This document shows positions 5,838 through 17,734 of a stretch of DNA of 37,288 nucleotides, one piece after another. Origin of the DNA: a virus. Numbering within the stretch: position 1 is the stretch's first letter; every line of letters begins with the position of its first letter. The translations under genes and the position numbers were made by a program. The stretch is taken from UHGV virus genome UHGV-1407012, one strand, 5' to 3'. A model generated the notes under the pieces. It did no database searches. It had not been told where the DNA came from and saw nothing but the letters and a program-made list of their open reading frames with translations.

Positions 5838-5907
5838 ACGGATAGTCCTGGTATTGTTCCATCACATCCTGAGGATGCTCTTCGAACTCTTCAAATTCTT
5901 CTTCCAT
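5821..5907 (-). CDS. Possible very acidic micro-protein (28 aa, MEEEFEEFEEHPQDVMEQYQDYPYDYDY)
   Basis: ATG with GAGGTG RBS 4 nt upstream; 3' end overlaps the start of the next gene; too short for ORF track. Confidence 0.25.
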   Translation of the reverse strand: MEEEFEEFEEHPQDVMEQYQDYPYDYDY

Positions 5908-5969
5908 ATCTCACCTCAAATAAGTGGTTTGCTGCCAAAACAATGAACCATCCGGAAATTCCAGATAGT

Positions 5970-6194
5970 TCATAATTCACTCTTCAATACTTCCAACTTA
6001 CTAATCGCCGATAGATATCCGCGCTGATAGGGCATCATCATTCCTTCGAGCTTGCCACTTCTTAACTCCTCCCTGAGCAATTGTATTGCTTGATCAATAA
6101 CCTCTGCCTTAGCGTCCTTTATGGCTTGCTTGCGGGGCTTTGCTTTCTGCTTTGGCAGATTTCTCAAGCATGATGGAATGTATGTCTGATTCAT
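5970..6194 (-). CDS. First gene of the pL operon (74 aa); N-like antiterminator only by position
   Basis: ATG 6194 with GAGG RBS; Lys/Arg-rich N-terminal stretch KQKAKPRKQ but no clear arginine-rich N motif. Confidence 0.55.
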   Translation of the reverse strand: MNQTYIPSCLRNLPKQKAKPRKQAIKDAKAEVIDQAIQLLREELRSGKLEGMMMPYQRGYLSAISKLEVLKSEL

Positions 6195-6437
6195 CACTTA
6201 CCTCGCTGTAACCTGCTTACTTGTACGATGACCAGCTGCGAAAAGCGCAACTTCTGGCAGGCAGACAGTACCACTCTTCAAATCAGCCTCCTTTTTCTTT
6301 TTCTATATCAAAAAGCTGCTTTGCTTTTGTGACTAAAAGCAAAAAAGCCTTCTCGCTAATGAGCAGCATTGCCGTTCATCCTGAACCCGCCGCGCTCCCG
6401 ACGCATGGTTTAATGTCGCGCCGTTCGACATGGCTTA

Positions 6438-6466
6438 ACTATATCCAAAGCTATTATTTCTGTAAA
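6438..6466 (-). promoter_or_regulatory. pL-like early-left promoter (-35 TTTACA, 17-bp spacer, -10 TATAGT on minus strand)
   Basis: Read on the reverse complement; overlapped by operator half-sites. Confidence 0.5.
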
Positions 6467-6473
6467 TAGCTAT
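6447..6473. promoter_or_regulatory. OL-type operator: AAAGCTAT-N11-ATAGCTAT inverted repeat
   Basis: Same half-site and spacing recur between cI and cro (7379..7405). Confidence 0.45.
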
Positions 6474-6560
6474 AGTTATAAAATAACTACTTTGGTTATT
6501 TAGTTGTTGATATATAATGTAATTTATTTTTCTTGAGTGTGATGTTTGGTGTGTTTTGGG

Positions 6561-6588
6561 CAATAAAAAACCCGCAAAAAGCGGGTTT
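6561..6588 (-). terminator. Rho-independent terminator downstream of cI
   Basis: AAACCCGC-loop-GCGGGTTT hairpin followed by UUUAUUG on the minus strand. Confidence 0.6.
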
Positions 6589-6605
6589 GTTGTGGTGTGA
6601 TGCGG

Positions 6606-7337
6606 TTAGTAATCAACTACAGACCACCAGAAAATTCTTCCGATGATCTCAATGTCACTTAGATTCTTTTCTTCTTGTGGGTATTCCAGTGAGTTAAAGC
6701 TTCTAATGCTTACCTTGTCAGGCCCTGTTCGAAAGAGAATCTTAATGCGTTTCCAACCGTTCTCGTTAATGGCGTAAATCTTTCCGTCAACTATTTTCTT
6801 ATCGTTGGTGTTAACAGCAACTGTTGTTCCATCAGGAATGTTTGGCTCCATGCTGTTGCCACGAGCCGGAAAACAAACAACCCCGCTTCCATCACTGTTC
6901 GCGCCAACTCTGCGAAGGGTTGATTTGGAAAAGCGCAACATAAAGCCGTTGTGATCTTCATCAATCACCCGACCATCCCCGCATGCAAACTCAATATCTT
7001 TAAGGTAAGGAATTTCAACTTCATCACCTCTTAAAGGCGTTCCTCCATCCCATGGGTCCAAACATCCCCACGTGCTTTCATGAGGAATAGAAGATTTTGG
7101 ATCATAAGGTTCAACTCCCTCATCACGCATTGGCCCAGTTCCATCGGAAAGCCATTCCGTACGAACTCCAAGCACTTTTGATATTTCAAAAAGTTTGCGC
7201 GTATTGCGTGTTTTTCCAGACGTAAGTTTCCAGACGCTTGGCTGAGACATGCCAACAGCATTGCCAAGAGAAGCCTGAGTAAACCCAGCCTGATCCATCG
7301 CGTATGTAAGCCTTTGAGAAAAAGTATCTAGTTTCAT
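6606..7337 (-). CDS. cI: CI-type prophage repressor (HTH N-domain, LexA-like S24 autopeptidase C-domain)
   Basis: HTH segment QASLGNAVGMSQPSVWKL; C-terminal GNSMEP serine motif and downstream Lys; divergent from cro. Confidence 0.9.
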   Translation of the reverse strand: MKLDTFSQRLTYAMDQAGFTQASLGNAVGMSQPSVWKLTSGKTRNTRKLFEISKVLGVRTEWLSDGTGPMRDEGVEPYDPKSSIPHESTWGCLDPWDGGTPLRGDEVEIPYLKDIEFACGDGRVIDEDHNGFMLRFSKSTLRRVGANSDGSGVVCFPARGNSMEPNIPDGTTVAVNTNDKKIVDGKIYAINENGWKRIKILFRTGPDKVSIRSFNSLEYPQEEKNLSDIEIIGRIFWWSVVDY

Positions 7338-7348
7338 TCGGACAACCT

Positions 7349-7405
7349 ATAGCTACAGCTATTATTAGTCAAATATCTAAAGCTATTTACTTTCTGAATA
7401 GCTTT
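7349..7405. promoter_or_regulatory. OR operator region: 14-bp palindrome ATAGCTacAGCTAT (7349..7362) and AAAGCTAT-N11-ATAGCTTT (7379..7405); includes putative pRM (-35 TTGACT on minus strand)
   Basis: Inverted repeats read directly; arrangement between divergent cI and cro. Confidence 0.45.
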
Positions 7406-7414
7406 GGCTATTAT
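7386..7414 (+). promoter_or_regulatory. pR-like promoter (-35 TTTACT, 17-bp spacer, -10 TATTAT)
   Basis: Positioned about 30 nt upstream of the cro start and overlapped by an operator. Confidence 0.45.
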
Positions 7415-7445
7415 TCTTGTTGTGAATTCAGCAGGAGTTATTTTT

Positions 7446-7676
7446 ATGGTCAACAAGGCTATTAAAGCGGCTATTGACTCAGTAGGAAGTCAGCAAAAGT
7501 TAGCTGATGCCTGCGGTGTTAAGCAGCCGTCTGTATGGGCTTGGTTGCATGGGAAGAAAAGGGTATCCGCTAAAAATGCCAAGCGCATTGAAATGGCTAC
7601 CAATGGAAGCATCCCTGCATACCTGATTCGCCCTGATTTATCCGATTTGTTCCCCAATCCGAACAAAGCAGCTTAA
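7446..7676 (+). CDS. cro: Cro-like repressor (76 aa)
   Basis: ATG 7446 with AGGAG RBS inside track ORF 7404..7676; HTH QQKLADACGVKQPSVWAW. Confidence 0.7.
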   Translation: MVNKAIKAAIDSVGSQQKLADACGVKQPSVWAWLHGKKRVSAKNAKRIEMATNGSIPAYLIRPDLSDLFPNPNKAA

Positions 7677-7795
7677 TAAAGCAAATTTTTATACCGAACG
7701 GCCCGGTATACGGTCGGGTGCCCGGCGTGGTCAAGGATGACTGTCAATGGTGCACGATAAAAACCCAAATTATTTACCTATGGAGATAGTAAGAA

Positions 7796-8092
7796 ATGAC
7801 ACAAGCAAGCTACAGCAAGCCAACACAGCGAGAAATTGATCGCGCTGAAACAGATTTACTCATCAACCTGTCAACGCTTACCCAGCGCGGTCTGGCAAAG
7901 ATGATTGGCTGTCATGAATCGAAGATAAGCAGAACGGACTGGAGATTTATTGCTTCGGTTCTGTGTGCTTTTGGAATGGCATCAGACATCAGTCCGATTA
8001 GCAGGGCTTTTAAGTATGCATTGGATGGAATCACAAAGAAAAAATCCCCGGCCGCCACCGAGGATTTTAAGCAAATTGATATGCAATTCTGA
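7796..8092 (+). CDS. cII: CII-like transcriptional activator
   Basis: C-terminal ...TKKKSPAATEDFKQIDMQF resembles lambda CII ...TNKKRPAATERSEQIQMEF (recalled); HTH KMIGCHESKISR. Confidence 0.85.
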   Translation: MTQASYSKPTQREIDRAETDLLINLSTLTQRGLAKMIGCHESKISRTDWRFIASVLCAFGMASDISPISRAFKYALDGITKKKSPAATEDFKQIDMQF

Positions 8093-8124
8093 GGTCATTA
8101 CTGGATCAATCCACAGGAGTAATT

Positions 8125-8286
8125 ATGACAAAACGTCGTAAGAAATACCAGGAAAAAGAAGAGATTCGACACCCTGATTCACCTGAGGGATTAGTGGTAG
8201 CCGCAGCAAATAACAGGGCTTTCGCAGAGCGCCTTGTTGGTGTTTACAGACTAGCCAAAGCAGGAGTGAAACATGGGCGTCGTTAA
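8125..8286 (+). CDS. Small basic hypothetical protein (53 aa, MTKRRKKYQEKEEIRH...)
   Basis: AGGAG RBS 5 nt upstream of ATG; lies between cII and the replication gene. Confidence 0.4.
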   Translation: MTKRRKKYQEKEEIRHPDSPEGLVVAAANNRAFAERLVGVYRLAKAGVKHGRR

Positions 8287-8335
8287 GTTAGCTGATTACA
8301 GGCATAACCCTGTACAACATCAGGAGGCATCCAGT

Positions 8336-9163
8336 ATGGGGTATGTCTCTATACACCGCCAGTTTATGGACAGCAGGCTCTATAAGGACTCTCAGGCAGT
8401 ACATCTTTGGCTTCACTTAATCCTCAAGGCTAATCACGAATCTACTGTCGTCAATACGGATATCGGGCCGATAACTGTTGATCGCGGTCAGATGATAACT
8501 GGACGCCCGTCGCTGGTCAGAGAAACATTCATCCCCGACAACAAAGTTCGGAGCTTATTACGGACTTTTGAGTCGAAAGGGATGCTTAATATTTGCTCGA
8601 TGGGGAAGAAATTTAGCCTGTTTACAATCGTTAAATATGACGATTTTCAGGCAAAAAATTGTCCAACGGTTGTCCAACGGTTGTCCAACGCAAACACCAG
8701 TAATGGCGCGGCTCTCAGCGGAGATTGTCCAACGGTTGTCCAACGGTTGTCCATAAACAATAATATAAATAATATCTCTAATACTGACGTATTAGAGAGT
8801 GCCACAGCAGACAAAAAGTCTGACAAGAAAAAACCTTCCGTTAGCTGTCAGGATGTTGTCGATGCTTACCACGAAATCCTTCCTGAAGCGCCAAAAATCC
8901 GCGCACTGAATGACAAGCGTAAAAACCAGATCCGAACGTTCTGGCGCAAAGCCGGAGTGATAACCCGCCAGCTTGACGGGCATGGGTTCACGATGCAGGA
9001 CTGGAGAAATTATTTGAGCTACGTAGGCGAAAATTGCCGATGGATGTTCGAAGAGCGTCCAAACCATCAACGCGGAACCGTCTGGCACAAAAAGGGATTT
9101 GATTTCCTGCTTAACGATAATACCTACCTGAAAGTTCGTGAGGGTGAACACGATGACCGATAA
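8336..9163 (+). CDS. Replication initiator (lambda O / P22 gp18 functional analogue) carrying the origin iterons
   Basis: ATG 8336 with AGGAGG RBS (track ORF starts 8273); iterons and AT-rich tract inside the gene; followed by the helicase gene. Confidence 0.75.
   Translation: MGYVSIHRQFMDSRLYKDSQAVHLWLHLILKANHESTVVNTDIGPITVDRGQMITGRPSLVRETFIPDNKVRSLLRTFESKGMLNICSMGKKFSLFTIVKYDDFQAKNCPTVVQRLSNANTSNGAALSGDCPTVVQRLSINNNINNISNTDVLESATADKKSDKKKPSVSCQDVVDAYHEILPEAPKIRALNDKRKNQIRTFWRKAGVITRQLDGHGFTMQDWRNYLSYVGENCRWMFEERPNHQRGTVWHKKGFDFLLNDNTYLKVREGEHDDR
8659..8757. repeat. Origin iterons: six 11-bp TTGTCCAACGG-type direct repeats in two triplets, followed by an AT-rich tract
   Basis: Triplets at 8659..8691 and 8725..8757; AT-rich 8757..8790; encode the repeated peptide CPTVVQRLS. 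Confidence 0.7.
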
Positions 9164-17491: not shown

Positions 17492-17734
17492 ATGGCAGAG
17501 ATTATTCCCATGACTGAAGAACAGAAATTCCAGTTAGAGATTTACAAGCTGGTCATGAACCAGAACGCAGCCGCAGAGGAAGCATTTCAATTCATTGGCA
17601 CTGACGAGCTGAAGCTTGAGCTATTCAAAATTCACTTCCAGTCAGGCGGCGCTAATTCAGATATCACGATCCGCACATTCGAAGCGGTGCGTAAATCGAA
17701 GGAAGCGTTAGACCTGTTCACCACCGGAGCATAA
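17492..17734 (+). CDS. Hypothetical protein immediately upstream of terminase (80 aa)
   Basis: GGAG RBS 6 nt upstream of ATG. Confidence 0.55.
   Translation: MAEIIPMTEEQKFQLEIYKLVMNQNAAAEEAFQFIGTDELKLELFKIHFQSGGANSDITIRTFEAVRKSKEALDLFTTGA

Follow-up and report, generated by a model that had tools for sequence, protein, structure and literature searches.

The analysed window, the whole 37,288-nt stretch of the viral genome UHGV-1407012, carries an immunity region in which the genes for a cI repressor and a Cro protein are divergently oriented, with cII lying downstream of cro (Table 1). The cI protein combines a 434-like helix-turn-helix (HTH) N-terminal domain with a self-cleaving C-terminal domain of the S24 type. 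Its residues 7-68 align without gaps to residues 3-64 of the 434 repressor (phmmer against PDB, chains 1PER/2OR1, E = 5e-8), with the equivalent of Gln28 being retained (Gln32) and those of Gln29 and Gln33 changed (Pro33 and Lys37, respectively). A contact between Gln32 and A1 is assumed. Cro matches the Pfam families YdaS_toxin (1.5e-18) and P22_Cro (6e-8), as well as the Cro protein of Xfaso1 (3BD1, E = 7e-6). The two regulators have the motif GxxQPSVW in common; since QPSVW lies in the recognition helix of both, repressor and Cro very probably read the same half-site, as the original prediction had suggested. In NCBIfam, cI and Cro gave only sub-threshold matches of the DicA/DicC type, and neither the 27-aa "N peptide" ORF nor the 75-aa ORF could be assigned to a family.

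As in phage HK022, the module is flanked by putL and putR. Positions 6301-6437 of the window are 95.7% identical to the putL region of HK022, HK75 and O276, and the homology to HK022 stops at ~6434. The immunity module is delimited on its left side by putL; its right border lies at ~7690. A scan of positions 5900-8200 against Rfam returned no match and, as Rfam is devoid of a put RNA family, the assignment of putL and putR rests on DNA identity to annotated records. The PL promoter is placed relative to putL as in HK022: in an alignment, its -35 and -10 hexamers occupy the same columns as those annotated for HK022 pL, which lie immediately upstream of putL, and its start is expected near position 6431. 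The immunity module itself, in contrast, is unrelated to that of HK022: the cI proteins are 21% identical, the Cro proteins share no significant similarity, and the operators of HK022 are of the TGAAC-N6-GTTCA type, unlike those of the window. Near-identical modules, with 97-99.8% identity across cI, cro and the operators, are found in Escherichia phage APC_JM3.2, in Wanchaivirus PDP110P2 and in prophages of 31 out of 5426 complete E. coli genomes.

Both hexamers of PR are invariant across the window, the Pseudocitrobacter locus L018 and the locus L021. The promoter for repressor maintenance (PRM) falls below the threshold of the promoter scan and is weak, with three of six matches in its -10. 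Its start would coincide with the A of the cI ATG (7337), so that the cI mRNA would be leaderless. The equivalents of PRM in L018 (TTGATG-N17-TAGGAT) and L021 (TTGATG-N18-TATGAT) stop 6-7 nt before the ATG, and a Shine-Dalgarno sequence is lacking there.

Table 1. Genes, promoters, predicted operators and flanking elements of the immunity region, in window coordinates
Feature	Position	Strand	Description
putL antiterminator RNA, HK022-type	6361..6423	(-)	Downstream of PL; coordinates transferred from the O276 putL annotation
PL promoter	-35 TTTACA 6466..6461; -10 TATAGT 6443..6438	(-)	17-nt spacer; promoter scan, 10/12 matches
OL1 (predicted operator)	6441-6454		ATATCCAAAGCTAT, 2 mismatches vs ATAGCTnnAGCTAT; overlaps PL -10
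OL2 (predicted operator)	6466-6479		ATAGCTATAGTTAT, 1 mismatch; adjoins PL -35; 25 bp from OL1 start
Possible weak OL3 (tentative)	6486-6499		ACTACTTTGGTTAT; likeness to consensus in right half only
Intrinsic terminator after cI	6568..6588	(-)	Terminator scan: 8-bp stem, 5 GC pairs, then T run
cI repressor	6606-7337	(-)	243 aa; Pfam HTH_3 + Peptidase_S24
PRM promoter (inferred)	-35 TTGACT 7372..7367; -10 TAGGTT 7349..7344	(-)	17-nt spacer; read by eye
OR3 (predicted operator)	7349-7362		ATAGCTACAGCTAT, perfect match; centre ~-18.5 from inferred PRM start
OR2 (predicted operator)	7373-7386		ATATCTAAAGCTAT, 1 mismatch; centre ~-42.5 from inferred PRM start
PR promoter	-35 TTTACT 7386-7391; -10 TATTAT 7409-7414	(+)	17-nt spacer; promoter scan, 9/12 matches
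OR1 (predicted operator)	7398-7411		ATAGCTTTGGCTAT, 1 mismatch; over PR spacer and first 3 bases of -10
cro	7446-7676	(+)	76 aa, all-alpha P22-Cro/YdaS type; Shine-Dalgarno AGGAG 7433-7437
putR, HK022-type	7699..7755	(+)	Downstream of cro; identical to annotated O276/HK022 putR stretch
cII	7796-8092		Pfam Phage_CII, downstream

The original prediction had described ATAGCT-type half-sites around cI in two geometries, namely a compact palindrome right of the gene (ATAGCTacAGCTAT, 7349-7362) and half-sites separated by N11 both on the left (AAAGCTAT at 6447-6454 and ATAGCTAT at 6466-6473) and on the right (AAAGCTAT at 7379-7386 and ATAGCTTT at 7398-7405), and had taken these to reflect two binding modes or one geometry for each protein. 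Every string is present where it was reported, the repeats overlap both PL and PR, and the identification of an immunity region, like the shared half-site, stands; the two geometries do not. A repeat search revealed that both N11 elements extend to a 39-bp unit, ATATCyAAAGCTAT-N11-ATAGCTwTrGyTAT, which consists of a pair of partial 14-bp palindromes built like the compact one, their weaker outer halves having previously been missed. A single predicted operator unit, the 14-bp palindrome ATAGCT-nn-AGCTAT, accounts for all five sites: three 14-mers right of cI, between cI and cro, and two on the left, past the cI terminator, the starts of adjacent predicted operators being 24-25 bp apart. All five match ATAkCy-nn-rGyTAT, with most of the conservation in the outer ATA(G)/(C)TAT and a variable centre. 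Even within the window, position 4 of the half-site can be G, T or C, so that OR2 and OL1 have imperfect outer halves, and only OR3 has a G-C pair in its central dinucleotide (AC). OR2 adjoins the -35 of PRM on one flank and that of PR on the other. The N11 stretch is the gap between neighbouring operators, and at both PR and PL it contains the -35 hexamer, which explains its fixed length and the partial conservation of its sequence.

Two clear OL sites are present in the window. The OL3 candidate starts 20 bp from the start of OL2 and has a counterpart in L018 (TTGCTTTTAGCTAT) at the same +20 offset; with mismatches at 5 of 12 positions, it could be due to chance. A perfect 17-bp palindrome of lambda size, TAGTTATAAAATAACTA (6473-6489), overlaps OL2 and is kept in the E. 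coli copies; it was not adopted as an operator because it is missing at the equivalent place in Pseudocitrobacter and has no counterpart in OR.

If AAAGCTAT-N11-ATAGCTwT (27 bp) were a real second geometry, with half-sites 19 bp apart, its ligand would be a protein in extended or tetrameric form, or else just one of the two proteins, with the other taking the 14-bp palindrome. Such a reading is consistent with the inner halves of the PR and PL units being free of mismatches, all of which are confined to the outer halves, and with the exact string AGCTAT-N11-ATAGCT being found at these two places only. However, the gap is occupied by a -35 hexamer and a 434-type HTH dimer spans ~14 bp; furthermore, cI and Cro possess the same recognition helix, which leaves no reason for one geometry per protein.

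The hexamer ATAGCT by itself is not over-represented in the window (20 matches versus 16.7 expected), with 7 of the 20 matches falling in the two short stretches flanking cI. The 14-mer ATAGCTNNAGCTAT was found four times with at most one mismatch (0.08 expected), in all cases flanking cI, and when two mismatches were allowed, five of the six matches in the window were located within the 283 bp of non-coding DNA on either side of the gene. In local dinucleotide shuffles, these 283 bp contained 0.055 sites on average and none of 5000 shuffles reached five; since the consensus was derived from the perfect site of the tested region itself, this test is not fully independent, whereas the cross-species data are. 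The extra match at position 17611 (two mismatches) is within chance expectation (1.4 per window) and was discarded. An unbiased scan of inverted-repeat spacings in 14 related OR regions peaked at 14 bp, with 17 occurrences observed, 1.7 expected and a shuffle maximum of 6. In the same scan, the N11 spacing showed a slight excess (7 occurrences versus 1.6 expected), which counts in favour of a second geometry.

The recognition helix QP[ST][VI]W defines a set of five loci, comprising, in addition to the window, those of Pseudocitrobacter, a contig labelled Martelella, ASU11 and Pantoea, the cI proteins of which are 81%, 63%, 57% and 55% identical to that of the window, respectively. The OR region of each of the five contains exactly three ATA-N8-TAT sites, and an OL pair with 25-bp spacing is present in four of them, the Martelella contig being the exception. 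Altogether, 26 ATA-N8-TAT sites were counted over the five loci (2.1 expected; shuffle maximum 9). ASU11-type phages share the ATAG...CTAT ends of the sites with the window but differ from it in the centre and in the helix (QPTIWR). In a three-way alignment of the OR regions (window, L018 and L021), conservation is seen in the operators and promoter hexamers, and the DNA between operators has diverged. OR1 is identical in L018 and reads ATAGCTAAGACTAT in L021; OR2 has the outer half ATACCT in most E. coli copies and becomes ATAGACTTGCCTAT in L021, where the 14-mer is kept while the inner halves drift; the OR3 position is occupied by ATAGCTCAAGCTAT in L018 and ATAGCCATAGCTAT in L021. On the left, OL1 is identical in the E. 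coli copies and L018, and the L018 counterpart of OL2 is ATAGCCAAAGATAT, likewise with 25-bp spacing. Of all architectural features, the 25-bp distance between the starts of OR2 and OR1, and of OL1 and OL2, is the best conserved among the relatives, which again could be taken in favour of a second geometry. Yet what remains invariant is the outer ATA...TAT, in the five window sites as well as in the 13 further OR and OL-pair sites listed for the four diverged relatives, while the inner halves are degenerate in L021 and ASU11 (GCCTAT, GTCTAT/ATAGGT) with ATA-N8-TAT being retained.

Among the relatives, other helices are paired with other 14-bp palindromes, at spacings of 23-25 bp: QAAIQK and QANIQK with ACAAC-N4-GTTGT, QPAIQK with ATAAC-N4-GTTAT and QQAIQQ with 434-type ACAA-N6-TTGT. 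In the resulting small natural series (QPSVW/ATAG, QPAIQ/ATAA, QAAIQ/ACAA, QQAIQ/434 ACAA), helix and operator covary, and the series may help to explore how 434-type HTH domains achieve their specificity.

The arrangement closely resembles that of phage 434, with which it shares a homologous repressor N-terminal domain (62 residues, no gaps), operators of 14 bp that are conserved at the ends and vary in the centre, three OR sites and recognition-helix residues common to repressor and Cro; close family members, S.Inf 5-2 and RCIP0034, even possess actual ACAA-N6-TTGT sites. It differs from 434 in the operators (ATAG/ATAT...CTAT versus ACAA...TTGT), the helix (QPSVWK versus QQSIEQ), the Cro protein, which in the window belongs to the P22-Cro/YdaS family and is only distantly related to 434 Cro, and the number of clear OL sites (two versus three). 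The different helix residues imply that the phage should be heteroimmune, and predicted operators that do not read ACAA-N6-TTGT, together with Pro and Lys at the equivalents of Gln29 and Gln33, points to a 434 design with a different immunity specificity. The spacing of lambda OR is 24 and 23 bp. With lambda, the window has in common a tripartite OR of similar spacing (24-25 bp), the placement of OR2 (~-42) and OR3 (~-19) relative to a weak PRM, the probable leaderless cI mRNA, the overlap of OR1 and OR2 with PR, and cII downstream. It departs from lambda in the size of the operators (14 versus 17 bp), in the sequence families of the repressor N-terminal domain and Cro, and in the distance between OL and OR (~0.93 versus ~2.4 kb). 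By eye, the OR regions of phi80 and HK225 look different, with sites of roughly 17 bp, and they were left out of the evidence; nothing usable on published phi80 operators was found in our literature search.

Judged from the sequence, the region most probably represents a conventional lambdoid switch of 434 design with 14-bp operators, the "11-bp geometry" being made up of the stronger inner halves of a pair of neighbouring operators. Against this reading count the variation at position 4 of the half-site, the presence of just two clear OL sites and the weakness of PRM. On the model of lambda and 434, binding of cI dimers to OR1/OR2 and OL1/OL2 would block PR and PL, both of which have their -35 within the 11-bp gap and their -10 overlapped by the outer half of OR1 or OL1. 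From OR2, centred near -42 of the weak, presumably leaderless PRM, cI would activate its own transcription, and occupation of OR3, near -19, would switch PRM off. Cro, equipped with the same QPSVW helix, would recognise these sites too, presumably starting with OR3, and thereby shut off PRM during lytic growth, while RecA-stimulated cleavage of the S24 domain would lead to prophage induction.

In the window, L018 and L021, OR3 is the site closest to the consensus, and in ASU11 and Pantoea it forms a perfect 5+5 palindrome; if affinity tracks the match to the consensus, this fits poorly with a lambda-like occupancy in the order OR1, OR2, OR3. In addition, the perfect inner and degraded outer half-sites form 39-bp super-palindromes at both PR and PL. 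Taken together, these two features leave a small chance that the order of occupancy or the cooperativity differs from lambda and 434, possibly through binding that requires a tetramer and is driven by the inner halves or through an affinity hierarchy set by indirect readout of central bases rather than by the contacted ones. We consider it quite unlikely that the 14-bp operators are real but serve a switch logic unlike that of lambda or 434, in which OR3, the sole perfect palindrome, would be the highest-affinity cI site and cI purely negatively autoregulated or, alternatively, the paired sites would be sites for obligate tetramers, with the inner halves dominating. Against it, OR2 at ~-42 of a weak PRM with a good adjoining -35 has the classic geometry for activation, and the central dinucleotide of OR3 contains a G-C pair (AC in the window, CA in L018); in ASU11 and Pantoea the centre is CCTCCG. 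In the 434 operator, central G-C pairs lower repressor affinity. The 434 operators are 14 bp long with conserved outer 4+4 bases and a centre that is read indirectly (PMC1636474), and its non-contacted central bases influence repressor affinity through indirect readout (PMC1636474, PMC3317979); by this analogy only, the site whose contacted bases match perfectly is not necessarily the one bound most tightly. Conversely, the 933W repressor departs from the affinity order and cooperativity of lambda, indicating that lambdoid switches can do so (PMC3317979). Very improbable, in view of the invariant outer bases and the -35 hexamer in the gap, is the second half-site geometry discussed above.

With the conventional 434-type switch as the favoured reading, the region reveals no new regulatory principle; what it provides is a concrete and testable operator map (OR1-3, OL1-2, PR, PL and PRM) for an uncharacterised immunity type of conventional design and previously undescribed specificity. 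Operators are annotated neither in the APC_JM3.2 record nor in the five E. coli loci inspected, PDP110P2 is devoid of any annotation, and the operator strings were not encountered in the literature searched, the APC_JM3.2 genome announcement being set aside. The immunity type is carried by mosaic phages of the P22-like and HK022-like kinds and by ~0.6% of complete E. coli genomes, O111 strains among them.

The ATAGCT repeats and the two overlapping promoters described around cI in the original prediction were borne out by coordinates, promoter scan and gene order, and all of its listed strings were found in place. Taken over the entire window, ATAGCT shows no enrichment (20 copies versus 16.7 expected); 7 of the 20 copies lie inside two short stretches flanking cI. 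A repeat search revealed that the elements read as half-sites eleven bases apart (N11) are the cores of longer 39-bp units, every arm of which is 14 bp long and built like the compact palindrome, ATAGCT-ac-AGCTAT. In all, this gives the window five sites of a single type, OR1-3 on the cro side of cI and OL1-2 to its left, with start-to-start spacings of 24, 25 and 25 bp. With at most one mismatch, ATAGCTNNAGCTAT has 4 matches in 37 kb (0.08 expected), all flanking cI; with up to two mismatches, 5 of 6 matches fall within the 283 non-coding bases flanking cI, versus a mean of 0.055 in local shuffles, 0 of 5000 of which reached five. A third OL site is doubtful. The repeat feature is real and functionally meaningful, and is predicted to be a standard 434/lambda-style operator set of uncharacterised immunity specificity.

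Features of the immunity region
Feature	Position	Strand	Sequence or remark
putL	6361-6423	minus	HK022-type antiterminator RNA sequence
PL	6466..6438	minus	TTTACA-N17-TATAGT
Left 39-bp unit	6441-6479		ATATCCAAAGCTAT-tatttctgtaa-ATAGCTATAGTTAT
OL1	6441-6454		ATATCCAAAGCTAT
Left N11 element	6447-6454, 6466-6473		AAAGCTAT-N11-ATAGCTAT; overlaps PL
OL2	6466-6479		ATAGCTATAGTTAT
Terminator	6568-6588		intrinsic, after cI
cI	6606-7337	minus	repressor, 243 aa, HTH_3 + Peptidase_S24; between PL and PR
PRM (inferred)	7372..7367, 7349..7344	minus	TTGACT-N17-TAGGTT
OR3	7349-7362		ATAGCTACAGCTAT
Compact palindrome	7349-7362		ATAGCTacAGCTAT
Right 39-bp unit	7373-7411		ATATCTAAAGCTAT-ttactttctga-ATAGCTTTGGCTAT
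OR2	7373-7386		ATATCTAAAGCTAT
Right N11 element	7379-7386, 7398-7405		AAAGCTAT-N11-ATAGCTTT; overlaps PR
PR	7386-7414	plus	TTTACT-N17-TATTAT
OR1	7398-7411		ATAGCTTTGGCTAT
Cro	7446-7676		76 aa, YdaS/P22_Cro family; right of cI
putR	7699-7755	plus	HK022-type antiterminator RNA sequence

PL and PR are exactly the two best matches of the promoter scan. The -35 hexamer of PR starts within OR2, at its final base, and takes up the first six bases of the gap, and the final TAT of OR1 starts its -10 hexamer; PL with OL2 and OL1 is the mirror image. This geometry explains the N11 gap. The annotated pL hexamers of HK022, directly upstream of putL, align column for column with those of PL. From the sequence we also infer a PRM, too weak to reach the promoter-scan threshold, whose -35 hexamer abuts OR2. 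The cI ATG lies six bases past TAGGTT and is devoid of a Shine-Dalgarno sequence; were its A the transcription start, the centres of OR2 and OR3 would lie at -42.5 and -18.5. The PRM of lambda has this arrangement, with a leaderless cI message, and it recurs in two diverged relatives, Pseudocitrobacter (TTGATG-N17-TAGGAT, ATG 7 nt further on) and a contig labelled Martelella alba (TTGATG-N18-TATGAT, ATG 6 nt further on).

The two operator geometries originally proposed collapse into one, as both N11 elements sit within paired 14-mers: the 8-bp half-site combines a 6-bp half with the 2-bp centre, N11 is the space between neighbouring operators, and the dual geometry is a parsing artefact. When exact 5-nt inverted repeats were counted without bias at all spacings across 14 OR regions, the N11 spacing exceeded expectation (7 versus 1.6), but the peak lay at 14 bp total length (17 against 1.7 expected and no more than 6 in shuffles), with 11 in each flanking register of the same dyads. 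The Martelella and ASU11 loci separate the two models, since their inner halves have lost their lead over the outer ones and the 14-mers nonetheless persist.

An ungapped alignment (E = 5e-8) pairs residues 7-68 of cI with residues 3-64 of the DNA-binding domain of the phage 434 repressor. Sites of 434 are 14 bp long, with the outer 5+5 bases contacted, the outermost 4+4 conserved and the centre read indirectly (PMC1636474). In this alignment Gln28 of 434 is retained as Gln32, and Pro33 and Lys37 take the places of Gln29 and Gln33. In 434 co-crystals, Gln28 reportedly reads the A of position 1, with positions 2-4 read by Gln29 and Gln33; the helix changes would fit a site keeping A1 and changing CAA to TAG. 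The cI and Cro proteins align through the HTH (E = 4e-8) and have G-x-x-QPSVW in common, so both would be predicted to recognise one and the same half-site, as repressor and Cro do in 434 and lambda. The suggestion of two proteins using one half-site was thus right in the ordinary sense, and these comparisons point to a 434-type mode.

Binding by cI and Cro, affinity order, cooperativity and PRM activation are proposed by analogy with lambda and 434. In every relative OR3 comes closest to the consensus. Among the window sites it alone has a G-C pair in the central dinucleotide, and its centre is also GC-rich in ASU11 and Pantoea. Parts of the 434 literature (PMC1636474, PMC3317979) report that non-contacted central bases affect affinity, and we speculate that the G-C centre may offset the perfect contacted bases of OR3.

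cI homologues were gathered from annotated phages and species-representative genomes, and their flanks read. All loci with a cI helix QP[ST][VI]W carry three ATA-N8-TAT 14-mers in OR: Pseudocitrobacter (81% cI identity; ATAGCTCAAGCTAT, ATATCTAAAGCTAT, ATAGCTTTGGCTAT), the Martelella contig (63%; ATAGCCATAGCTAT, ATAGACTTGCCTAT, ATAGCTAAGACTAT), phage ASU11 (57%) and Pantoea (55%). Over five loci, these four and the window, such sites total 26 (2.1 expected, shuffle maximum 9). Three of the four, the Martelella contig being the exception, also have an OL pair spaced by exactly 25 bp. In relatives with other helices the 14-bp palindromes differ too, and the spacing is still 23-25 bp: ACAACy-nn-rGTTGT in UPF_BP1 (cI QAAIQK, Cro QAAVQK) and phiEt88 (QANIQK, QAAVGK), ATAAC-N4-GTTAT in Symbiopectobacterium (QPAIQK, QPAVHK), and the 434-type ACAA-N6-TTGT in S.Inf 5-2 and RCIP0034 (QQAIQQ, QQTIQQ). 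In a three-way OR alignment the operators, promoter hexamers and cro Shine-Dalgarno sequence are conserved, whereas inter-operator DNA diverges. The Martelella contig (NZ_SZPQ01000041.1) is assigned to an alphaproteobacterium and carries an enterobacterial-style cI/cro pair whose QPSVW helices and ATAG-N6-CTAT operators match those of the window; it may be assembly contamination or mislabelled.

The cassette (~6434 to ~7690) sits between putL and putR, which no Rfam family detects; HK022 homology stops at ~6434 and resumes at ~7690. HK022 itself has an unrelated cI and Cro, so the cassette is a mosaic swap, a clean replacement. In one E. coli copy, homology breaks off a little to the left of ~6431, directly outside PL. 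The cassette recurs at 97-99.8% identity in phage APC_JM3.2, PDP110P2 and 31 of 5426 complete E. coli genomes. None of the inspected records annotates operators (that of PDP110P2 lacks any annotation), nor were the operator sequences found in the literature searched. Operators are nearly invariant among E. coli copies; the main variant lies in the OR2 outer half, where ATACCT replaces ATATCT, at a position that also differs among the window's own sites.

Several minor features were observed. A perfect 17-bp palindrome, TAGTTATAAAATAACTA (6473-6489), overlaps the outer half of OL2; kept in E. coli copies and absent at the equivalent Pseudocitrobacter position, it may be a chance product of AT-rich DNA. 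A 10-nt exact direct repeat, TTTCCAGACG, with two copies 14 bp apart (7213-7236) in the coding sequence of the cI N-terminal domain, is probably incidental. Residues 117-119 of cI (window 7119-7127, within IEFACGDG), where the RecA-stimulated self-cleavage site would be expected, read Ala-Cys-Gly, not Ala-Gly; a Cys-Gly site would resemble UmuD. By eye, the S24 domain has the Ser in GNSMEP and a downstream Lys. The E. coli CDF6 plasmid pCDF6_2 (178.9 kb) carries the same cassette, with cI annotated as frameshifted. Just downstream of putL, a 27-aa ORF (6198-6281, minus strand) with a TTG start and a strong AAGGAGG Shine-Dalgarno sequence ends just before a 75-aa ORF (5970-6197). It had no match in an NCBIfam search; in E. 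coli PEC122 it carries the PGAP annotation 'transcriptional antitermination N peptide', and the 5' part of the mEpX2 N gene matches it at 98.8% DNA identity, an N-gene remnant being odd alongside a put site. To the right of cI lie cII, like cro, and an O-like replication gene (8273-9163), inside which two clusters of three 11-bp TTGTCCAACGG iterons (period 11; 66 bp apart; 8647-8764) look like a lambdoid origin of replication.
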